Source: Candidatus Saccharimonadota bacterium (lineage in GTDB: Bacteria > Patescibacteriota > Gracilibacteria > BD1-5 > UBA6164). From it: a stretch of DNA of 32,000 nucleotides. Location of the stretch: positions 120,001-152,000 of the forward strand of contig OZ245768.1 of NCBI GenBank assembly GCA_965227835.1. Direction: 5' to 3'. The notes below the pieces were generated by a model, which was not told the origin of the DNA, did no database searches, and was given only the letters and a program-made list of their open reading frames with translations. Made by a program: the position numbers and the translations under genes. Positions 7,087 through 29,249 of the stretch are shown here, piece by piece; positions within the stretch are counted from its first letter, which is position 1; each line of letters begins with the position of its first letter.

Positions 7087-8306
7087 TAATTGAAGTAATA
7101 TATTATTATTACTTTTTTTTATGCAAGAAATACAAAAAATAATAAACAAAGAACTATGATATTTAATGAAATATGAATGCAAAAATGATAAAAGATTTAT
7201 TAAAGAGTTTTTTTGAGATATAATAAAGCTAAGAACAACAATAATGAACAAATTATGATTTTGAAAATATAAAAATCCTAACAAAATGAGTGAAAAAATA
7301 AAACATTTCTTTGAAAAAGATAGTTTTAAAAATTTTAACCTAAAAGTAGAAAAAAGATGTTTTTCTATGTTATGAAAAATAAATAAAAATGATTATATAG
7401 TTTTTGATGAAGTTGATATAGCAAAACAATACTCAAAGAAGCTAGAAAATTTATCTAAAGTAAGAGATTGAAGTACTTGAAATATAGTTTCTTGATATAT
7501 GTATCATTGAGTAAGTATAAATTGAATTCCTGTAATACTTGAGTATGAAGATTTAACTAATAAATTTAAATCTGAATATTTTTGAAAATTAATTAAAAAA
7601 GTAGAAGATTATACTAAATGAAAGTGAATATATGTATATGATGCTTGATATGATATAGCATCATATATAGAGTTTTTAAATAATAGTGTAAATAGATGGA
7701 TAATAAGAGCTAAAAAGAATAGGATATATTTTGATTTAAAAACCAATAAATATTTGAAATTAAAGGAATTTAAAGATTGAGTTCATAAGGTAAGAATTAA
7801 TTCAGTTAATGAATCAATATATCTTCATATTAAATCAAATCCTAAATTTCCTGAACCAATGAGGATATTATCAAATTCAAGAAAAACAGATATAGAAGAA
7901 TATAAACAAAGACGGGAAATAGAGACAATATTTAAAACTATGAAGCAGGAGTTTCAGCTTGAGAAACTTCAAGCTAAGAGTTTAATAGTATTTAAAAATT
8001 TTGTTTCTACTATACAGTTGGCTATGGCTTTGACTAGGACTATATATAAAAAGAATAATTCTTTTTGTGAGAATCAGAGGTTTATACTTTCTTCTAGATT
8101 TAAATCTAGATTTAGAGATTATACAAAATCTCGATGAATAACTATGAATTCTAATTCTATTGTTAAATTTATATCTTATTGTTTAACAAAGTTGTATAAA
8201 CCTCCTAAAAAACATATTAAAAATTTAAATAATAAAAACAACCTACATTTCCCTCAGTTATCCTTATTCTCATATGTCGATTTTATAAAAAGTGGGTAGT
8301 TTTGAG
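7022..8306 (+). mobile_element. IS4-family insertion sequence (1285 bp) with terminal inverted repeats and a 6-bp target duplication
   Basis: IRL ctcaaaactcccca (7022-7035) versus the reverse complement of 8293-8306, ctcaaaactaccca (13/14). Direct repeat atttat at 7016-7021 and 8307-8312. A single DDE transposase ORF lies inside. Confidence 0.8.
7121..8299 (+). CDS. DDE transposase, IS4 family
   Basis: 392 aa, frame checked. DDE residues in IVFDEVD, YVYDAGYD (the Gly is TGA) and YKQRREIETIFKTMK, the Y(2)R(3)E(6)K signature of the IS4 family. Confidence 0.85.
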
Positions 8307-8427: not shown

Positions 8428-10590
8428 TTAAGATTTTTCAATTGAAAGCATATATAATCTAATTCATTCAAAGTCCTCCATTTCAAATAGTCTCCTGATT
8501 TCTTTTTTCTCTTTTCTATAAATTAAATCAAAATCAAAAGTTCAGTCTTTTCAATATTTAAGCAGATTATATATAAACATGTTAATGTTATGGAGTTTTG
8601 GATTAATCATCTCTTCAAAAATAAGTCATTTATTTAAATAAGAACGACCATAATTAGGATTAATTTCTAAAGCTTTATCAAGAATTTTAATAGCTTGATC
8701 AAAATCTCATTTTTTAAATAAAGCATTTCATTTGTTATTATATGCTTCTTCATAACTAGGATTAAGTTGAATTGCTATATCATACATTTTAATAGCTCAA
8801 TCAAAATCTCATTTACTAGATAAGGCACTTCATTTGTTATAATATGCTTCTTCATAATTAGGATCAAGTTGAATTACTATATCATACATTTTAATAGCTC
8901 AATCAAAATCTCATTTACTAGATAAGGCACTTCATTTGTTATAATATGCTTCTTCATAATTAGGATCAAGTTGAATTACTCTATTATACATTTTAATAGC
9001 TCAATTAAAATCTCATTTTTCAAATAAGGCATTTCATTTTTTAAAATAAGCATCGGTAAATTTAAAGTTAATTTGAGTTGCTAAATTATACATCTCTATA
9101 GCTTTATCAAAATCTCATTTTTTAAGTAAAGTATTTCAATTACTACAATAAGCATGTTCAAATTTAGGGTTAATCTCAATTGCTCTATTAAACATTTTAA
9201 TAGCTCAATCAAAATCTCATTTTTTGAGTAAAGTGTTTCACTTGTTATTATATATCATTTCATAATTAGGATTAAATTGAATTGCTGAATTACAAATTTT
9301 AATAGCTCAGTCAAAGTCTCATTTACTAGATAAATCACATCACTTGTTATTAAGAATTTGGGACAATAATATTTTTTCTGGATCTCAAGATAAGGCTATT
9401 TTATAATTCATAAAATAATTAGATTTTTCATTTATAGAAATACCAAAGTTTTTATAAATTCATTTTTTACCGTCAAATTCTACATTTCTTCACCATTTCA
9501 ATTTATATATTTCTACACAAGAAGTAGGGTCAAAATAATAGCCATCATCTCATATAAAAATCTCTAAAGCTGAATGTTCAGGAATAGCTAATCAATTATG
9601 TTTTATTCATAGTTCAGATAAAAAACAGTGTCCTACCAATGAGAATCATACACAATACAGTTCTTTATACCTAAGTATTTTATTGGGTTGGTATCAATAA
9701 TCATCTGATGTTAATTGATATGGATATTTAGTATGAAGTATTCATATCATTTGATTTGTAGCTTTTTTTTCTAACTTTACTATTAATTCTTTATCATTAG
9801 CTTTTCTTGCTTCTTCTAGTTTCTTCTTAAAATCATCTATTCAAATTTTTTCTCTAAGTTTTTGTTCTTCAATATCCAAAAATTCTGGCAAAATTTTTGA
9901 TGTAATAATCTTTTCTCCTTCTTTCCTAGGTCTAGATTTTATTTCTTCAAATTCTTTTCTAGTAAGAGTCATAAGACCATATCTAAGCATATCCATTGAT
10001 TTTCTAAAGAAACTTAAATCAAACTCCGTAGTATAAAGAGACTCTATTAAATCATCTAAATCATCTATATCTTTTAACCTCTTAGTATTCTCTTTTTTAT
10101 CTACCTCATTTTTTTGATTTTTATAACCTTTTATTTCTCTAATAGATTTTCTAAGAGAGAATATACTAGAATCTATTTCTTGCTGATATTTAGAAAAAGA
10201 ATCTACAGGCAAAGAATTTTCTAAAATTATCATTTCTATCTTTTCTTCATTTTCTTTTTTAAGATTTAAAATTTCTTCATTAGAAATACCTTTAGTTCAC
10301 AATCTCACATATCATATAAATTTTTTTATATCTAATCACAGACTAAATTTTTCATTTAAAAGAAAAACTACTTGAAATAAATCTTTATTGTTTAAGTCTA
10401 CAGGTAAATAAAGATCATAAAATTTTCAAAACTTATCTTCTCAGTTTTCTAAAAGAAACCTTCATTTCATAGAATCAAATTCTTTTCTATCTACAAACAC
10501 AGGATTTATATGATCTAGAGTTTCTAAGATTTCTTTAAAAGCTTCTCTTGAATTACTATTCTCAAATAATTTACTGTTTAAATTTATCAT
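8428..10590 (-). CDS. SirB1/transglutaminase-like (Transglut_core2-type) + TPR-repeat protein, paralog A (720 aa), with an uncharacterised ~290-aa N-terminal region
   Basis: Minus-strand frame checked line by line (no tta/cta in frame). Core is LYCVGFSLVGHCFLSELGIKHNGLAIPEHSALEIFIGDDGYYFDPT. About 7.5 TPRs of 34 aa follow (..AIKMY..AIQLDPNYEEAYYNKG..). The tail is FEGIRLYMLSIEKS*. Confidence 0.75.
8779..8982 (-). repeat. Two tandem 102-bp (one TPR = 34 codons) units, 101/102 identical
   Basis: 8779-8880 and 8881-8982 differ only at the penultimate base (at versus ct). Flanking 102-bp units are progressively more diverged. Confidence 0.9.
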
Positions 10591-10647: not shown

Positions 10648-10705
10648 AAAAAGCCCCCTATATTTTTACAGGAAACCATATATTTTATAATATTTCAATA
10701 AACCA

Positions 10706-12853
10706 TTAAGAATTTTCAATTGAAAGCAAATATAATCTAATTCATTCAAAGTTTTTTTCTTTAATAAGTTTTATAATTTCTTCTTTCTCTTTTTTATAAA
10801 ATAAATTAAAATCAAAAGTTGTATTTTTTGGAGATTCAAGAAAATTGCATATTGATATGTTGATAAAAAATAAATTAAAATTTATGAATAGACCTTCTCA
10901 TTTTTTTTCAAGGAGGTTATACAAAAATAGATTGATGTTAGATTCTTTTGATTTACCTAATTTTTTTAAAGCTTGTCATTTTTCAAAATAAGCTCTTGAA
11001 TTCATAGAATTAGTCTCTATAATTTTATTATAAATCTTTATAGCTCAACTATAATCTCATTTATCAAATAATAATCTTCACTCATTGAAATAAGATTCTG
11101 CTTCAATTCATAATACATACAACCTAATTCATTCAAAATCTTGTTTTTCAAATAGTTTTATTATTTCTTTGGCTTCTTTTTCAAAAAGTATTAAATAATG
11201 ATCTGAAACTCACTCTTTTCAATTCTCAAATAAATCATGTACGAATTTGTTTATATCAGACTCTCTGTATTTTTTTAGAGCTCTTAATGTTACTGACTTG
11301 CAAAAATAAGCACCTTCAATCTTAGGATTGATTTCTATTGCTTTATTGTAATTTTTTATTTCCTTATTATAACTATTTTTATGATATAAATTAATTCATT
11401 TTCTAATATAAAAATATTCATTTTTAGGGTTAAGTTCTATAGCTTTATCTAAGTTTTTTGTTGCTTCATCATGGTTTCACTGTTCCTCTAGATAAATTCA
11501 TTTAAAATAATAATAAAGATCTGAATTTCCAAGGTCAATTTCTATTAATCTATCAAATATTTTCATCGCTTTGTCAAAATATCATTTTCTCTTTAAAGAA
11601 ATTCATCTATTATAAATTACATGTCATAATAATATTTTTTCTGGGTCTCAAGATGTTGCTATTTCATTATCTATAAAATAATTTTTATCCCCATTTATAG
11701 AAATACTAAAATTTTTATAAATTCATTTTTTTCCATCAAATTCTAAATTTTTTCACCATTTTAATTTATGTATTTTTCTACTATATGTAGCATCAAAATA
11801 ATAGCTATCATTTCATATAAAAACCTCTAAAGCTGAATGTTTAGGAATATTTAATCAATTATGTTTTATTCATAATTCAGATAAAAAACAGTGTCATACT
11901 AACGAAAATCATACACAATATAATTCTTTATACCTAAGTATTTTATTGGGTTGATATCAATAGTGATCTGATGAGACTTGATATGGATATTTAGTATTAA
12001 GTATTCATATTATTTCATTTGTAGCCTTTTTCTCTAACTTTATTACTAATTCCTTATCATTAGCTTTTCTTGCTTCTTCTAGTTTCTTCTTAAAATCATC
12101 TATTCAAATTTTTTCTCTGAGTTTTTTTTCATTGATATCCAGAAATTCTGGCAAAATTTCTGATGTACTAATTCTTTCTCCTTCTTTCTTAGGTCTAGAT
12201 TTTATTTCTTCGAGTTCCTTTCTAGTAATAGTCATAAGACCATATCTAAGCATATCCATTGATTTTCTAAAAAAACTTAAATCAAACTCCGTGGTATAAA
12301 GAGATTCTATTAAATCATCTAAATCATCTACATCTTTTAATTTTTTATTTTTCTCTTTTTTATCTACCACATTTTTTTGATTTTTATAACCTTTTATTTC
12401 TCTAATAGATTTTCTAAGAGAAAATATACTAGAATCTATTTCTCCTTGATATTTAGAAAAAGAATCTACAGGCAAAGAGTTTTCAAAAATTATCCTTTCT
12501 ATTTTTTCTTCATTTTCTTTTTTAAGATTTGAGATTTCTTCACTAGAAAGATCTTTAGTTCACAATCTCACATATCATATAAATTTTTTTATATCTAATC
12601 ACAGACTAAATTTTTCATTTAAAAGAAAAACTACTTGAAATAGATCTTTATTATTTAAATCTACAGGCAAATAAAGATCATAAAACTTTCAAAACTTATC
12701 TTCTCAGTTTTCCAAAAGAAACCTTCATTTCATAGAATCAAATTTTTTTCTATCTACAAATACAGGATTTATATGATCTAGAGTTTCTAAGATTTCTTTA
12801 AAAGCCTCTCTTGAATTACTATCCTCAAATAATTTATTGTTTAGATTTAGCAT
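10706..12853 (-). CDS. SirB1/transglutaminase-like + TPR-repeat protein, paralog B (715 aa), with a chimeric C-terminus
   Basis: Frame checked line by line. The N-terminal ~400 aa are very similar to paralog A. The TPR region is strongly diverged. The FEGIRLY(V/L)L tail motif occurs twice (internal, about 11100-11190, and terminal). Confidence 0.75.
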
Positions 12854-16444: not shown

Positions 16445-17461
16445 CTATTCACCTTTCAAATGATTTATTCAAGCTCCTGTTATTTTTCTTCCTCTTGGTG
16501 TTCTTTCTATAAAACCTATTTGCAACAAATAAGGTTCTACTACATCTTCCAAGGTTGCTTCTTCTTCTCATATGGATGATGAAAGTGTATTAAGTCATAC
16601 AGCTTCACTTGCAAATTTATTGTATAAAGTTTCTAAATATTTCCTATCTAAATAATCAAGTCATATATTATCTATTCATACACCACAAAAAATATTTTCC
16701 AAAGTATTTATGTTTCTTATATCTTTTCAAATAGAGCTATAGTCTCTAACTATTTTTAGTAATCTGTTTGCAACTCTTGGTGTTCATCTGGATTTTTTTG
16801 CTACTACTTTTAGAGTATCTTTACTGAAATCTATACCTAGTTTTTTTGCATTGTTTTCTATTATTTTTGTTATTTCTTCTTCTTTATAAAAATCTAGTTT
16901 TAGTATATTTCAAAATCTATCTCTAAGAGGGCTTGATAATGATGATAGTCTAGTTGTAGCTCATACCAAGCTAAATTGTTTTAAAGGCATTTTTATACTC
17001 TGGGCACCCGTTCAGCTTCAAACCATTATATCAATTACAAAGTCTTCCATAGCAGTATAAAGTATTTCTTCCACTTGAGGTTTTAATCTGTGTATCTCAT
17101 CTATAAATAGTATATCACCTTCTTCTAAGTTTGAAAGTATTGAAACTAAATCTGATTGTTTTTCTATAGCTGGTCAGCTACTTGATTTTAATGAAGCTCA
17201 CATTTCATTTGCTATAATTCCTGATATGGTTGTCTTTCATAATCCTGGAGGTCAGTAAAAAAGCATATGATCTAGATTTTCTTTTCTTATTTTACTTGAT
17301 GCTATTGAAACAGAAAGATGTTTTTTTATCAAATCTTGTCATATATAGTCTTCTAAGCTTAGAGGTCTTAATATATTATTAAAATTTCATCTAGCGTCTT
17401 CTTTTTTTTCACTAGTGCTTACTATTCTTTTTATATCTTGTTTTTTTGATGATTTTAGCAT
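16445..17461 (-). CDS. ruvB: Holliday junction branch migration helicase RuvB
   Basis: 338 aa, frame verified. Walker A LFYGPPGLGKTT, Walker [11 protein letters not shown], sensor GATTR, and PRGRKIT in the C-terminal winged helix. Confidence 0.95.
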
Positions 17462-17981
17462 AGATTTTTTCAATATAGTTTTTATTAATTTAAAATATAT
17501 TCTCTTTAATTTAAAATTCAAATAAGTAAATATTGACTTTATTATCTGTACCAGTAGATAGGTACCACTATTTATTGATATGGAATTGTGTAAAAAAGAG
17601 GATGAGGATATAATAGATTTTGTAAAAAATTTTATTTTATAATCCCAAACCTCTTATGAAATGATTATATGAAAAAATGTGTACTAAGCAAGGAGTAGAA
17701 TCAGCAAGAATCCTCGCGAGGTCGATACTTGAAGAAAACAAAGGAAACGTAAGTAAAACAGCTTATATATTATGATGTTCTCGTAAAACAGTAAGAAGAA
17801 GTAGAGATGGTCCTATAGAAAATATATCAAGAGCTCCTAAGACTCCTCATAATAAAAAAACATCTTCTGATTTAGAATGACTTGTATTACAAGAACGAAA
17901 TAAAACAAAATATTGAAGAGTACGTCTAGCAAAGTATTTATTCCTCAGATATGGAATAACATTCTCTTCCTCTACTATATG

Positions 17982-19184
17982 GATCTGTTGCGTTTTGATT
18001 TTAAAAAGAGTTTTAATTAAGAAATGTACTAAAATAGATGAAAGATTTATAAAATTCATCTATTTTTTGTTAAATTATAGCCATTTTTATATATAATTTA
18101 GGATTTTAGACGCAATCCACCTAAGGAAACTAATCTAAACTATTGGGACTTCCTCTAAAACAACTAATCTTTTGAGATTAAAAGATATAGCTTCCATAAA
18201 TGCAGTAAACTGATTTTTTACTACAGACTTATACCTCACTCTATGATTCATTTTTGAAAATACCCTCTCATAAGGAGATCTAAGTTTAGAATAAAACTTA
18301 TCTTTATCCTTGTTCTTATCTTTCATATTATTTTTCTTTATTGCACATAGATGTAATCACTTCTTTTTTGTTGATATTACAGCCGGTCAAATACAATATC
18401 ACTTATCAGCATATACTGCTCATGAACTTGGTAATACATGCTTCATTCACTTTGCATCTGTTACATTAGCTTGAGTTATAGCTATCTTGTTTATCATTCA
18501 AGATTGCATATCAACACTAGTATGTTTTTTATATCCATACCAAAATTTATTTTTTCATTTAGATCAAATTTTAGCTTCCTTATCATTAGCAACTTTTGGA
18601 AGAGTTTCATTATTCATTTTTTCATATCATTCTTTTATTCATTTATCTCTTTCTTCCCATAAATTAGCTTTAGTAACTAAATGAGAAGCATCTACAAATG
18701 TAAACACTTCACTCATATACCCCTTATTTGATAATTGATTTTTTAAATCTTCAAATATCTTTGATAGTTCATTTGTTCATATCTTTTTTCTTGCTCTTGA
18801 GAATATACTATAATCTGGAGTTTTATCTGTTAATTTAAATCAGCAAAACCATTTACCAGCTAGATTTTCTGCAAGATATTTCTCTAACTCTCTATCTGAT
18901 AAATCTTCCATAAACTGGATTAGTAAACATAGAAATAATTTTTTTACTCAATATCATACATGAGTTTTTCATAGATCTATATTTTTTAGTATTTTATTTA
19001 CTCAATCAAAGTTCCACAATTTCTTAAATTTACGATATTGATGATTTTCTGGAATTAGCTCGTTTAGGATAACAAAACTTATTTGATTTGATTCTCACAT
19101 AGGTATTTTCTTAGAATATAATTACTATCTAATTATATCTCTTTTTTCTCTTTTTAATAGTCAAAGTTTAATTTACAACAGGCT
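17982..19184 (-). mobile_element. IS5-family insertion sequence (about 1.2 kb) nested inside the IS481 transposase gene
   Basis: Flanked by the direct repeat ctatatg (17975-17981 and 19185-19191). Weak terminal IR (..ctgttg at both ends). Contains an intact transposase ORF. Confidence 0.7.
18135..19100 (-). CDS. IS5-family DDE transposase (DUF772-type N-terminus + DDE_Tnp_1)
   Basis: 321 aa, frame checked codon by codon. Motifs FTFVDASH, AVYADKGY (the Gly is TGA), SKLRSPYERVFSKMNHRVRYKSVVKN. Confidence 0.85.
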
Positions 19185-19935
19185 CTATATGAAATATACT
19201 AAAAAGAAACAAAGTAAAAAAGCATCATTATTCTCGTAGAAAATGAGATAGTAAACCTCTATACGATTATCAAAATATTCTTCCCTTTGAGTATGGTCAA
19301 GTAGATACAAAGCATATAGAAGATTTTGAAGCTTTATGAGAACTTTGTTTTATACTAAGAAAATATAATCTTCCTTTATATCAATGGACATATATATGTG
19401 CTAAAACAAAATATAAATTTATAGCTTATTCTCATAGTCTTTCTTCTGAATTTGGTCTTATGTTTATACTTACTATAGCTACATATCTTAGGAGTATGTG
19501 AATATATTATCATATGGAATTTCAATGAGATAATGGCCCTGCTGATTTTTGTGGATGAAGTAAGAGAAAGGAAAATCAGTGGAATGCTATATTAAATAAT
19601 ATAAATTGCTGTTTTAAGAGTATTCCTGCTTGAAAAAAATATCTTCAATGAATTGTAGAGAGATCTCATAGAACTGATGATGAAGAATTATATAGACCTT
19701 ATCTTGATCGCATGAAATCTCTTCCTAATTTTTTAAACCATAGTAGTAAATATATTTATACTTATAATAATTATAGACCTTCTTTTTGAATAGGTATGAA
19801 CGGTTTAAGTCCTATTGAAAAACTTAGAAGTTGTAATATAATTCTTCCTACAAAATTTAATAATTTCCCTGTCCTTATCCTAGATAATCTTGCTAAAATT
19901 GGTGGTACCTATCTAAAGGACCATTACCGTAAATA

Positions 19936-19963
19936 TTGACTTTCTTTTTAATATTTATATTAT
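19936..19963 (+). promoter_or_regulatory. Candidate promoter TTGACT-N16-TATTAT for the downstream membrane-protein gene
   Basis: ttgact at 19936-19941 (inside the right copy of the 15-bp direct repeat), tattat at 19958-19963. Confidence 0.4.
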
Positions 19964-19994
19964 ACTCAAAGTCAATTTTTCTAATTTTAAACTA

Positions 19995-20001
19995 AAGGAG
20001 G
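19995..20001 (+). promoter_or_regulatory. Canonical Shine-Dalgarno (AAGGAGG), 5 nt upstream of ATG 20007
   Basis: ctaaaggaggatattATG. No comparable purine-rich SD was seen upstream of the other start codons I inspected in this window. Confidence 0.7.
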
Positions 20002-20006
20002 ATATT

Positions 20007-20831
20007 ATGGAAAATGACAAAACCGTAGGGGTTAACAAGGAAGTAAGGCATATATTTAATATTAATAAGGTACATATTGGAATATGTATTATTATATATT
20101 TAATTTTGTGGCTTTGTAGTGCTCTTTTCTTTTTGCTATCTATTTTTATGGGTTTAGAGGAAAGACCAGAATATTCAACTGTTGAAGCTTTTTTTATAAA
20201 TCTATTTCCTATTTTAACTATACCTCATATTTCAATATCTTTTATTTTGGCTTTATGTCTGTATTTAGACATTTTTAATAAAGATTCATTTATAGTCAAA
20301 TTCTTGATGTTTGTAGGTATGGATCAAAAAGAAAAGAATGTAATATATCAAATGAATTTATGTAGTTGTTTGTACTATCCTGTTTCTTTGTTTATAGCAC
20401 CTCTTGTTGTTGCATTCTACATACTGTTTTTTCTGTTTTTTTTGATTAATAGAACTATATATCCTATAGGAAAATTAATCCTTGGTTTTCTTTTTCTTGG
20501 TAGATATAAGTTAAGTAATAATAATCTAGATGTCTTTGATATGCCTTTTAATTTGAAGGTTTATCAATATAAACTGGATGGAGAATCTGCTTTTAAAGTT
20601 CATATTCCTTTTATATGTGATGAAAAAACAGATAAAGTAAGTATAATTGCTGTTTTTACTTATCTTTTTATTTATTCTTTTTTACTTTATAATTTTCCTA
20701 AGACTATGGGAGTTATTACTGCTATTTTCATAGCTTTGTTTTTAATCCTTTCTTATAATCTAGGACCTAAGTTCAAAGATTTTATTAAAGTACTGAGTTC
20801 AAGAGTATGTATAATACGTAATATACAGTAA
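20007..20831 (+). CDS. Multi-pass membrane protein of unknown function; the only long gene here with no TGA codon
   Basis: 274 codons, intact even under the standard code. All 10 Gly are GGN by hand count. About 7 hydrophobic segments. SD upstream and a strong terminator downstream. Confidence 0.75.
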   Translation: MENDKTVGVNKEVRHIFNINKVHIGICIIIYLILWLCSALFFLLSIFMGLEERPEYSTVEAFFINLFPILTIPHISISFILALCLYLDIFNKDSFIVKFLMFVGMDQKEKNVIYQMNLCSCLYYPVSLFIAPLVVAFYILFFLFFLINRTIYPIGKLILGFLFLGRYKLSNNNLDVFDMPFNLKVYQYKLDGESAFKVHIPFICDEKTDKVSIIAVFTYLFIYSFLLYNFPKTMGVITAIFIALFLILSYNLGPKFKDFIKVLSSRVCIIRNIQ

Positions 20832-20850
20832 CTTCCCCATAAAACTTTAC

Positions 20851-20881
20851 AGGTATGCACCTTTGGTGCATACCTTTTTTT
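20851..20881 (+). terminator. Rho-independent terminator
   Basis: aggtatgcacc (20851-20861), loop ttt, ggtgcatacct (20865-20875), then a T-run to 20881. An 11-bp perfect, comparatively GC-rich stem. Confidence 0.85.
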
Positions 20882-20981
20882 ACGAGGCAATTATTTCAAA
20901 CTAAAACAATTTGAAAATAACTTTTATTTTTTTATAATTTTTAAAATTTTATATTTTAATAAAAAACTTATGAATCTATAC

Positions 20982-21497
20982 CATGATATACCTCTTGGAA
21001 ATAGTGATTTTTCTGAAATAAATGCTGTAATGGAAATACCAAAATGATCAAAAGTAAAATATGAATTTGACTATAAAACAGGTTGCTTATGGGTTGATAG
21101 AGTTTGAAAAACTCCTATAAACTATACTTTTAACTATTGAGATTTACCTCAAACATGGAATAAAGGAGATAGTGATCCTCTGGATGTAATTATCCTTTGT
21201 AGTGAAAGTTTAACTCCTTGAACTGTTGTGCCTCTTAGAGTTATTTGATGATTAAAAATGATAGATAGTGGAGAAGATGATTATAAAATATTAGCTGTAG
21301 CAGATGACAAATATTATTCAAATGTTAATGATTTAGATGATGTAAATAAAAAAGAACTTGAAGATATAGAATATTATATGCTTCATTATAAAGATTTGCA
21401 TGGCAAAAAAGTAGAATTAAATTGATGGGATAATAAAGATAAAGCTCAAGAAATATTGAAAGTATGTCATGAAGAATATAAGAAAAAATTTCTTTAA
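20982..21497 (+). CDS. ppa: Inorganic pyrophosphatase (family I)
   Basis: 171 aa from ATG 20982: ..EINAVMEIPKGSKVKYEFDYKTGCLWVDRV..NYGDLPQTWNKGDSDPLDVIIL..VIGGLKMIDSGEDDYKILAV..HYKDL. The canonical N-terminus MNLYHDIPLG lies in another frame starting at 20969 (see findings). Confidence 0.85.
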
Positions 21498-21534
21498 AAT
21501 GTTTTTTTTTTGCAATTTAGTTTTTTTGCAAATT

Positions 21535-21568
21535 AAACTAACTTACAAAATGTTTTACTATATATAAT
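21535..21568 (+). promoter_or_regulatory. Promoter-like conserved block, copy 1 (aaactaacttacaaaatgttttactatatataat)
   Basis: Repeated at 21717-21750 with 3 mismatches. Contains a ttacaa and tata(t/a)aat pair. Its 5' part (21538-21548) forms an 11-bp perfect inverted repeat with 21577-21587. Confidence 0.3.
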
Positions 21569-21716
21569 AAACTAAATTGTAAGTTAGACTATTTTAAAAT
21601 GCAACTTTAATTGAAAAAACAATTTTTACTTTTTGTCAACAGAGGGCTTTAGCCCTTTGATATTGTAAGAAGTTTCTATTTTTGAAAAGAGCCTATCTAG
21701 TTTGTTTATCAATACT

Positions 21717-21750
21717 AAACTAATTTACAAATTGTTTTACTATATAAAAT
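21717..21750 (+). promoter_or_regulatory. Promoter-like conserved block, copy 2 (aaactaatttacaaattgttttactatataaaat)
   Basis: 31/34 identical to 21535-21568. No ORF follows either copy. Confidence 0.3.
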
Positions 21751-22009
21751 GATAAATAACAATTAAATAAAAAACTCCTTGATTAAACAAGAGAGTTTTT
21801 TTAAAAAGAGAAACTCCCTACAATAGCAAAGCAAAAATCTTTTTTTATGAATATATAAGATCAAATAACTAAATATCTCTGCCTAAAAAAACAAAAAACA
21901 ACAAGGCTAAAGTCTTCTGTTGAAGAAGATATAATATCAAAGGAATAAAGCTCTCTATCTACTAAAAATAAATTTATATATTTAAGAATTAATTCTTCAA
22001 TCTCTCATT

Positions 22010-22041
22010 AAAAAACCATTTCCAATTGGAAATGGTTTTTT
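22010..22041. terminator. Bidirectional intrinsic terminator (perfect palindrome)
   Basis: aaaaaa-ccatttccaattggaaatgg-tttttt. Lies immediately downstream of the minus-strand ATPase gene and at the end of the non-coding island. Confidence 0.7.
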
Positions 22042-22044
22042 AAG

Positions 22045-23241
22045 TTATATGATTTTTAGCAATTCATCAAAACTAACTATTTTTATATTTTTTGAATTTC
22101 AAATCTTACTTCAAAATTCACTTTTATTATCTAAAACTATATATTTGTAAAAGCTAGATTTTACATTTAAGTCTTTATTTTCTTCTTTAGTAATAATTTC
22201 AGGAACTTTTATTAATCTATTTATAGATTTTTTAATATTTCATATATCTTTACTTTTACAAATATCTATAAATATTGTTACACTTTCTAAATCATTATTT
22301 CATTTTTTTACTGTTTTATTTCCATAAAACAAAAATTCATAAACACCATTTATTCAAGAATTTATTTTATATCAACTTTTTTCCAACTCATTAAATAAAA
22401 AGTTTTCTTTAATTAAGCTTAAATCTAAACTGAAATTATATAAACTATTTCTAAAGTCACTACTTGAAAAATAATACTTTACTCTAGTATTTATTTCTTT
22501 TTTCTTTTTAAAATCAAAAACATAAACTGGTTTTAATATCTTTGCATTTATAGAATATTTTAAATAATCTATCATTGTAATAAGAGATACTTTTATGCTA
22601 TTATTTATTTCTTTATTTAATTCTCTTAAAGAAACATTTCTGTTTAAATTACTTAAATATGTCAAAGTATAAATATACAAATATATATTTTTTACATTAT
22701 ATATTTTTATTATTTCTTCAAAAATAGTATTTTTAGTTTTTAAATCTTCTAGATATTTATTTTTGTTATTATAAACTATATCAAATTCTCTTTTTTTATC
22801 GCTAAATATTTCAAATTCTTTTTTGTTTCATATCTTTATACTATTTGATATTATTATAGTTATATAAGAATTATTATATAAATATTTTATATATTCTTTT
22901 ATGTTTTTTACTCAATCTAGGTTCTCCAAAATTATCATTTTAGGATTATTATATTTACTTTTATATAACTCTAATATATCTTTTAAGCTATTTTTATCTT
23001 CTAAAATATTATTTAAATCTAAGGATTTATTCAAATACAAAAAATAATCTTTCAAATTACTATTTGATATTATATAGCTTATAACAGATGTTTTTCACAC
23101 ACCTTTAATTCAAGATATAACTATAATTTTTTCTTTTTTGATATATCAAACTATATCATTTATTGTATTTTTTGAGACATCTTCTCTGTATCATTTTGAA
23201 TCCAGAAAATATTTTTTACTTCTTTCTATTAGATTTATCAT
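22045..23241 (-). CDS. AAA-superfamily ATPase (AAA_14 + DUF4143-like architecture)
   Basis: 398 aa, frame verified. Walker A ISGIKGVGKTS, Walker B-like MIILENLD. The C-terminal half resembles DUF4143-type proteins. Family assignment is from motif and architecture only. Confidence 0.6.
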
Positions 23242-25957: not shown

Positions 25958-25978
25958 AGTTTAACTCTATCTTTTTTT
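25945..25978. terminator. Bidirectional terminator between convergent genes
   Basis: agatagagt (25952-25960), loop tta, actctatct (25964-25972), flanked by an A-run and a T-run. Confidence 0.65.
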
Positions 25979-26753
25979 ACTCAAAATCAGATACAGGGTA
26001 GGGAATTCATTGGTTTTCACTGCTAGAATTTGAAGTTATGATTTGTTCATCTCAATCTTCCAGTATGGATCATGATGCAGATCATATTAGAGTTTCTGGA
26101 CAATCATCTGGTTCTCAATAACAAGACTGTTTATCATACGATCAAGATATCTTAGTCATATACTTATCACTTCAATCTTTTTTTATTGTGTATGCTATGT
26201 TATAATCATTTCACCTACTTGTTCAGTCTGTTTTTATATTTTTTTTGTAAATGGCATAAATATATCTACCTATTCAATAATCTATCATTTTCTCGTTACT
26301 TCCTGTAAGATTTATATCTCAAAGTTCTGGATCATACAAATCTTTAGTAAGATATTTTTTTCATAGAGTATTTTGTGATATAGTTCATTTATATCATATA
26401 TCCAAACTTGATCAGCTCGCAACTATTAGTCATCATCAACTACCACTTTCTATTCTTTCTATTTCTTGATCATCATACTTTACATTAAGTGTATTTGATC
26501 TATTTGCTGTTGAACCTGTATATCACCACAAATTATTATCTGAATATAAATCTGTAGGAGGATAATAATTTTTATCAGCTTTATATTGCTGTAGAGCTGT
26601 TTCTATTGTAGAAACATCACTTATCTTTCTTCATGACATAGCCTTATCTACTGCTCATCCAAAATTTTGATAAGCAACTACTGATATTATAGCTAAAATA
26701 GTTATTACTACCAAAAGCTCAACTAGTGTAAAAGCATTATTTTTTTTCTTCAT
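25977..26753 (-). CDS. Type IV pilin / pseudopilin with N-terminal prepilin methylation motif
   Basis: 258 aa, frame verified. MKKKNNAFTLVELLVVITILAIISVVAY class III signal with the conserved Glu at +5. The variable C-terminal globular part is Gly-rich. Confidence 0.8.
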
Positions 26754-26836
26754 AATTATTTTTATATAAATTTTAAAATTCATTGTTACAATAGTCCTTT
26801 ATAATTAAAAGTAAAGTACATTCAACTAAAATCACT

Positions 26837-29212: not shown

Positions 29213-29249
29213 AAAAAAACTTTAGCCTTTTTTCGGGCTAAAGTTTTTT
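29213..29249. terminator. Bidirectional terminator between convergent rel and rpsO
   Basis: aaaaactttagcc pairs with ggctaaagttttt, 8-nt loop. Overlaps the rpsO stop codon. Confidence 0.65.

Follow-up and report, generated by a model that had tools for sequence, protein, structure and literature searches.

Bacteria using genetic code 25 are often pictured behind a genetic-code firewall, and the locus described here raises the question whether a gene readable under the standard code has crossed it. The locus lies in a 32,000-nucleotide stretch of Candidatus Saccharimonadota bacterium (assembly GCA_965227835.1, contig OZ245768.1, positions 120,001 to 152,000 of the forward strand), which is referred to here as the window and to which all coordinates refer unless a locus name precedes them. 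The element in question is an open reading frame (ORF) at 20007..20831 on the + strand, which runs from ATG to TAA, encodes an orphan polytopic membrane protein of 274 aa, and contains 0 TGA and 10 GGN codons for glycine. We refer to it as the membrane gene. A preliminary description of the window had proposed that this gene is a recent acquisition from a standard-code donor. Our analysis indicates that the membrane gene is probably an orphan accessory gene of horizontal origin, which has become conspicuous through its recoded background. As to the route, we lean, albeit only slightly, toward the recent acquisition of a single-gene cassette from AT-rich DNA that would not use TGA as a sense codon.

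Glycine codons of the membrane gene

The source of the window is a Gracilibacterium that uses code 25, in which TGA encodes glycine. Most genes of the window are broken by TGA codons under table 11 and become intact when TAA and TAG are taken as the sole stops. TGA can be assigned to glycine because it occurs at the Walker A glycines of RuvB, where GPPGLGKT is encoded as TGA CCT CCA GGA TTA TGA AAG ACA. The inorganic pyrophosphatase (PPase) of the window shares 83-86% identity with its counterparts in metagenome-assembled genomes of Candidatus Gracilibacteria, and the GC content is 20-28% in the window and ~24% in the genome. As native reference we used the 20 other ORFs of the 32-kb window, the source contig being 1.49 Mb long. 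Relatives were represented by ~100 called genes around ppa from nine loci (L001-L005 and L078-L081). L001-L005 and the window amount to ~75 kb in all, with three near-identical loci counted once.

The preliminary description had singled out the membrane gene as the only long gene intact under the standard code, with GGN at all 10 glycine codons and neighbors in which TGA dominates, and each of these points is borne out. Among the ORFs of at least 150 aa in the window, it is the only genuine one that is intact under table 11, the remaining two being 158-aa antisense shadows, and when the window and L001-L005 are taken together, no other ORF of 180 aa or more is intact under that table. When the code-25 ORFs of at least 80 aa in L078-L081 were screened, the longest TGA-free one was a 226-aa antisense shadow. 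The glycine codons of the membrane gene are five GGA, four GGT, and one GGG, and with 0 TGA and a TAA stop its product is identical under code 11 and code 25. The 20 native ORFs, by comparison, contain 413 TGA vs 121 GGN codons (77% TGA), with per-gene TGA fractions of 0.50-0.94. The contrast between the membrane gene and the natives is significant by the Fisher exact test (p=5e-7), and a beta-binomial distribution fitted to the natives, which allows for gene-to-gene spread, likewise gives P(0 of 10)=8e-7. For ppa, seven TGA codons had been counted correctly, but out of 12 glycine codons rather than 11. The other two frames of 20007-20831 contain five TGA each, that is, TGA is not depleted there. 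An explanation of the missing TGA by membrane-protein composition was rejected, as native membrane proteins are TGA-rich, with 9 TGA and 1 GGN in the Ion_trans protein and 17 TGA and 6 GGN in a GT2/DUF2304 protein.

Expression signals

The membrane gene is preceded by the Shine-Dalgarno (SD) sequence AAAGGAGG (19994..20001, +), 5 nt before the ATG. The duplex of AAAGGAGG with the canonical anti-SD CACCUCCUUA has an energy of -11.6 kcal/mol, with the caveat that the organism's own 16S tail may differ. For the 20 other genes of the window the corresponding energies range from +2.8 to -5.3 kcal/mol and are mostly near 0, so that the textbook SD is indeed exclusive to the membrane gene, as had been claimed. 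The hexamer AGGAGG occurs five times in the window, vs 3.6 copies expected by chance, and only one copy, that of the membrane gene, stands before a start codon. No SD was found in the ~100 called genes sampled from relatives, nor in the 20 other window genes; SD-less initiation is the norm of the lineage in these ~120 genes. Loss of the anti-SD in the Candidate Phyla Radiation (CPR) has been reported to be restricted to some Parcubacteria (PMC9297842). The window's only other SD-like site, AAAGGA (-5.3 kcal/mol), belongs to a pilin-like gene with an N_methyl domain (25977-26783, -), and the fraction of G-ending codons in this gene is also fairly high (0.29).

Upstream of the SD, a consensus scan picked out a putative sigma-70-like promoter, TTGACT-16 nt-TATTAT (19936..19963, +), with 10/12 matches, which would leave a leader of ~35 nt up to the region of the ATG. 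Promoter-like hexamer matches of this kind do not exceed their frequency in shuffled sequence, and the site at 19936-19963 is proposed from its position only. The -35 and -10 hexamers are bracketed by a perfect 9-bp inverted repeat, ATTGACTTT ... AAAGTCAAT (19935-19943 / 19968-19976, within inverted repeat I9), which may be an operator for a regulator. Its left arm, ATTGACTTT, lies inside the duplicated target of an insertion sequence (IS) described below, and a second copy of this arm is consequently found upstream of ruvB (17532-17540).

Downstream of the stop codon lies an intrinsic terminator (20851..20882, +), in which an 11-bp stem (20851-20875), 6 of its pairs being G-C, closes a 3-nt loop and is followed by a T7 tail. 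The predicted fold has an energy of -18.1 kcal/mol (z=-4.2), and 0/200 shuffles were as stable. The strong, GC-rich terminator of the preliminary description is therefore real, but it is not unique in the way suggested there, since native terminator-like hairpins are present at 29214-29249, 10652-10677, and 22008-22043. A search of viral contigs with the terminator hairpin gave no match.

Synonymous codon usage

The membrane gene also stands out at codons other than those for glycine. At two-fold purine sites, the fraction of its codons that end in G is 0.35, more than in any other of the 21 genes, vs 0.07-0.29 in the natives (pooled 0.16; p=0.0014). Seven of its 18 Lys codons are AAG, and its Leu codons include nine TTG and five CTG. 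When glycine is left out, its synonymous log-likelihood per codon is the second worst of the 21 genes. Thus, three independent oddities, namely the lack of TGA, the canonical SD, and the G-ending codons, support a foreign origin.

The product and searches for relatives

The product had been described as a ~7-transmembrane (TM) protein of no recognizable family. It is indeed a polytopic membrane protein, but the hydropathy profile, with five strong hydrophobic segments and one or two weaker ones, and the positive-inside rule suggest ~6 TM segments rather than seven, with both the N-terminus and the C-terminus inside. A charged, beta-rich loop of ~45 aa occupies residues 165-209. The statement on family membership was confirmed, as profile searches with an E-value limit of 10 returned 0 families from Pfam, PHROGs, NCBIfam, or PADLOC.

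The homology and structure searches proposed earlier as a check on the origin of the gene were carried out, and they revealed neither a donor nor a homologue in the databases searched. A word-indexed search of 5.8 billion clustered proteins and an exhaustive phmmer search of 1.84 billion representatives both returned only the membrane protein itself, and a sequence search of PDB gave 0 matches. No match was obtained by tblastn against 50,697 INPHARED phage and 72,556 PLSDB plasmid records, and scans of IMG/VR and of JGI metagenome contigs detected no relative. A phmmer search of all code-25 frames of the window and of L001-L005 found no paralogue, and neither an orthologue nor a paralogue was seen in the window or in the nine loci of relatives, including the positions beside ppa. 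AlphaFold2, run from the single sequence, gave a model with a predicted local distance difference test (pLDDT) score of 55, and Foldseek with this pLDDT-55 model gave best E values of only 0.85 (PDB) and 0.18 (BFVD). The product is probably a moron-type accessory inner-membrane protein that may act, for example, in exclusion, immunity, or transport.

The membrane protein is present in a public protein collection, and the window's own PPase is absent among the returned matches. This suggests that standard-code gene calling was applied to the source genome, which would leave intact only those ORFs that lack TGA. By such mis-annotation, some databases would show no proteins of a recoded genome other than the products of TGA-free genes.

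Proposed recent import of a single-gene cassette

In the reading that we favor, the locus would be an autonomous one-gene expression cassette, comprising promoter, 9-bp inverted repeat, SD, TGA-free ORF, and terminator. Two classes of donor can be envisaged. The first would be a low-GC, SD-using standard-code bacterium or its plasmid or phage, and the second a code-11-compatible phage or mobile element predicted to infect Gracilibacteria. With regard to the latter, 34/38 predicted Gracilibacteria phages of >20 kb lack in-frame TGA (PMC10746230). The cassette would have landed between ruvB and ppa before an IS481-like element inserted just upstream of the -35 box, and it would not yet have undergone the GGN-to-TGA drift that is seen in native genes and resident transposases. 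Either the donor would have been equally AT-rich or the arrival recent, GGA (5 GGA here) being one transversion away from TGA. Long amelioration from a GC-richer donor seems unlikely, because TGA codons would be expected to have appeared in the meantime.

Several points weigh against this reading. No donor or homologue was found in ~15 billion proteins or in the phage, plasmid, viral, and metagenome DNA searched, and because of this the case for transfer is made from composition only. All integrated Gracilibacteria prophages reported use code 25 (PMC10746230). The GC content (25.2%) and the GC content at third codon positions (GC3, 17.5%) of the membrane gene fall inside the range of the natives or just at its border, so that a donor would need to be equally AT-rich. 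Flanking direct repeats or integration scars are not significant, the best being a 15/18 match that was reached by 19/300 shuffles. The window contains no phage genes, and neither phage nor plasmid genes lie near the cassette, whose neighbors are ruvB, IS elements, and ppa. Its outlier status was measured within the 32-kb window only, and native genes without TGA do exist. An 86-aa RRM_1 RNA-binding gene adjoining ppa contains 0 TGA and 8-9 GGN codons at three loci from two lineages (L005:8732-8992, L078:10732-10992, and L079:4201-4461). Taken together, the proposal of recent acquisition from a standard-code donor made in the preliminary description stands as far as the atypical composition and signals are concerned, but no donor was found and the GC content is host-like.

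A comparison with known systems shows partial likeness to several of them. The membrane gene resembles the genes of code-11-compatible phages with predicted Gracilibacteria and Absconditabacteria hosts (Liu et al. 2023, mBio, PMC10746230) in having no in-frame TGA in a code-25 setting. However, those are whole genomes linked to their hosts by spacers of clustered regularly interspaced short palindromic repeats (CRISPR), whereas the membrane gene is a single chromosomal gene without phage neighbors and has no match in INPHARED, IMG/VR, PHROGs, or BFVD. It shares with phage morons and other one-gene cassettes its own promoter-like site and terminator, atypical codons, an orphan membrane protein as product, and a position between unrelated conserved genes. 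It differs from morons in that it is not inside a prophage, its GC content is not atypical, and no donor was found.

Native genes that avoid TGA

The existence of the RRM_1 genes means that a TGA-free state alone does not mean foreign, and it brings up the alternative that the membrane gene is a native, lineage-specific orphan from which selection in the code-25 cell keeps TGA out. We consider this unlikely, yet worth weighing in some detail. It is doubtful as well, in our view, that the gene would be expressed at very high levels or in bursts that make the tRNA-Gly for UGA limiting or prone to error, with the SD serving as an extra initiation device, although the promoter, SD, and terminator would fit strong expression. 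Translational selection against UGA-Gly does seem to act in highly expressed native code-25 genes. In addition to the TGA-free RRM_1 genes, the PPase genes of two relatives have only 2-3 TGA of 12-13 Gly codons, and the ATP synthase beta gene of a relative has 23 TGA of 43. The host-like GC content of the membrane gene is also as expected for a native gene. Moreover, orphans are common in CPR genomes; for example, neither a COG class nor a conserved domain could be assigned to 48.9% of the proteins of Vampirococcus (PMC8080830).

However, the membrane gene fails to show the pattern of native genes with high expression. In the native low-TGA genes (RRM, PPase, and ATP synthase beta), the fractions of G-ending codons are 0.00-0.12 and an SD is absent, whereas the membrane gene combines its low TGA with a fraction of 0.35, a perfect SD, and no orthologue. 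The comparison is clearest with the RRM_1 genes, which resemble it in having zero TGA with 8-10 Gly codons. They lack an SD, show near-zero G-ending (0-3% of purine codons), are conserved, and contain a Pfam domain, and the membrane gene is the opposite on all four counts. High expression does not always remove TGA either, as TGA still makes up 39 of the 51 Gly codons for the c subunit of ATP synthase, which is highly expressed, in a relative. And, no other SD was seen among the ~120 genes. The preliminary description had considered that native genes both lacking TGA and carrying an SD would speak for a native origin; natives of the first kind exist in the form of the RRM_1 genes, but none of them has an SD.

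Synteny around ppa does not help to decide between native origin and import, because the neighbors of ppa differ among the relatives examined, the closest of which are only 83-86% identical in PPase. The only exception is the ppa-RRM pair, which is found in three loci (two lineages).

Less probable readings: selection for code neutrality, and chance

A further alternative, raised as a more speculative reading in the preliminary description, is that the code-neutral, SD-led state is kept by selection, since the gene would need to be translated where or when UGA does not mean glycine. We regard this as improbable. Three settings can be imagined. The cassette could be an element shuttling between the Gracilibacterium and a standard-code host; it could be expressed after DNA transfer inside the standard-code bacterium that hosts this episymbiont; or it could encode a fail-safe effector of abortive infection that acts if a standard-code phage restores termination at UGA. 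Effectors of abortive infection or exclusion are commonly membrane proteins. Having 0 TGA and stopping at TAA, the gene gives the same product under both codes, and its SD and G+C-rich terminator would be readable by standard-code, SD-using bacteria. In addition, Gracilibacteria as well as standard-code bacteria carry spacers that target code-11-compatible phages (PMC10746230). On the other hand, the cassette has neither linked mobility genes nor a PADLOC or PHROG match, no second copy or relative was present in the collections searched, and there was no sign of transfer or of a phage-encoded release factor 2 (RF2). The reading is attractive, but its support is confined to the features listed above, and one sequence cannot separate selection from the recency that the import reading implies.

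That the frame is open by chance or is a non-functional relic, with coincidental signals, is very improbable. Conservation is not demonstrable without a homologue, the AlphaFold model has a pLDDT of only 55, and promoter-like hexamers are not more frequent than in shuffles. However, a 274-codon frame without TAA, TAG, and TGA at 25% GC has an estimated probability of ~1e-9, and its SD, start codon, periodic hydrophobicity, and terminator match one another in register. Over the same stretch, 21-25 TAA/TAG codons interrupt each of the two remaining frames, which excludes a chance ORF.

Implications of a TGA-free gene in a recoded genome

If the membrane gene was imported as we favor, the code barrier would be one-way in the sense that a TGA-free, TAA-ended gene can reside, and presumably function, in a recoded genome. 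The combination of no TGA, an SD, and odd synonymous usage could then flag recent imports in recoded genomes, and such a screen would be useful especially for orphan genes, which do not allow a phylogeny to be built. A TGA-free state by itself would be insufficient for this purpose, as highly expressed natives such as RRM avoid TGA. With promoter, SD, and terminator in one natural unit that both codes can read, the cassette would also be a possible starting point for genetic tools for uncultivated Gracilibacteria. Should code neutrality maintained by selection prove true, this would be the first chromosomal gene adapted to a genetic-code boundary.

Neighborhood: ruvB, the IS elements, and ppa

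On the upstream side, the region begins with ruvB (16445..17521, -; Pfam RuvB_N E=2e-71, RuvB_C, and AAA_lid_4; 17 TGA and 10 GGN), the true start of which is likely an ATG ~60 nt inside this ORF. Between ruvB and the membrane gene lies an IS481-like element (17541..19928, +; Pfam HTH_8 and rve_3) whose exact ends are predicted. Its HTH N-terminal part is at 17656-18096, and the frame of the rve C-terminal part resumes at ~19180-19951, as the element is split by an IS5-family insertion at roughly 18000-19150. The core of its terminal inverted repeats is at 17555-17573 / 19897-19915 (I16, 89% complementary). It is flanked by two copies of the 15-bp direct repeat GTAAATATTGACTTT (repeat family D12) at 17526..17540 and 19929..19943, the right copy of which contains the -35 hexamer TTGACT of the membrane gene. 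Over 18 nt (17526-17543 / 19929-19946) the two copies are 94% identical, with a core of 15/15. The GTAAATATTGACTTT repeat probably represents the target site that the IS481-like element duplicated, and, because the apparent 15-bp duplication includes the -35 box, this element probably inserted after the membrane gene was in place.

This order of events bears on the adjacency between the gene and the nested IS481/IS5 cluster that had been pointed out earlier. The adjacency is true, but its link to the origin of the gene appears incidental. Like IS-associated passenger genes or IS-activated genes, the membrane gene is directly beside the IS481-like/IS5 cluster. Unlike them, it is not enclosed by the inverted repeats or the duplication, its ORF starting 64 nt beyond the right 15-bp copy; it has kept its own -35/-10; and it is TGA-free, whereas the transposases are TGA-rich and hence differ from it in their history. 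The possibility of an IS passenger gene was thus rejected on the basis of its position outside the apparent target duplication. An assembly chimera was also rejected, as native genes follow 139 bp downstream and the target duplication ties the upstream region to the ruvB side. A search of metagenomes with the sequence of the IS-free "empty site" gave no match.

The transposases in the window are instructive with regard to TGA. The IS5-family transposase ORF nested in the IS481-like element (18135..19100, -; Pfam DUF772 and DDE_Tnp_1) contains 17 TGA and 3 GGN. Its closest counterpart in the scan, with 69% identity (210/306), belongs to a multicopy IS in the Rickettsia endosymbiont of Nabis limbatus, which uses the standard code, and glycines of the endosymbiont protein stand opposite 10 of the 17 TGA codons. 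A contig scan with this transposase also returned standard-code relatives, mostly from the Rickettsia endosymbiont. This IS family is hence common to both sides of the code boundary, and here it is fully TGA-ised (17/20 Gly codons). TGA accounts for 11/21 Gly codons in the IS481-like halves and for 16/17 in a third transposase (DDE_Tnp_1, 392 aa; 7121-8299, +; 16 TGA and 1 GGN), three different IS-type transposases being thus present within the 32-kb window. Mobility or standard-code relatives do not keep genes TGA-free in this genome; mobility is not sufficient, because all three transposases are TGA-rich.

Downstream of the terminator, ppa encodes the inorganic pyrophosphatase (20970..21497, +; Pfam Pyrophosphatase E=9e-49; 7 TGA and 5 GGN) and has its own promoter-like site at 20911-20938.

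Other features of the window

Rfam searches of the window and of the membrane-gene locus gave no match. Between ppa and the next gene lies a 547-bp ORF-free gap (21498-22044), which contains a 46-nt promoter-like repeat in two copies (21523-21568 / 21705-21750, 83% identical), a pair of 43-nt arms that form a long-range inverted repeat (21625-21667 / 21930-21972) whose core is rich in G+C, and, at 22008-22043, a terminator in the form of a perfect 18-nt palindrome. The gap may encode unannotated small RNAs. It is followed by the gene for an AAA_14/STAND-like ATPase of 398 aa (22045-23241, -), which has a GC content of 16.7%, and the GC content between 22 and 24 kb is 15-19%, far below the window average. 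This ATPase gene may be a separate island or a defense-type NTPase. Farther upstream, two tandem TPR-repeat paralogues (8428-10590 and 10706-12853, both -) encode proteins of 720 and 715 aa that share 476 identical residues, and the 30-nt regions upstream of the two genes are identical. The pair looks like a recent tandem duplication in which the C-terminal repeat regions are diverging.

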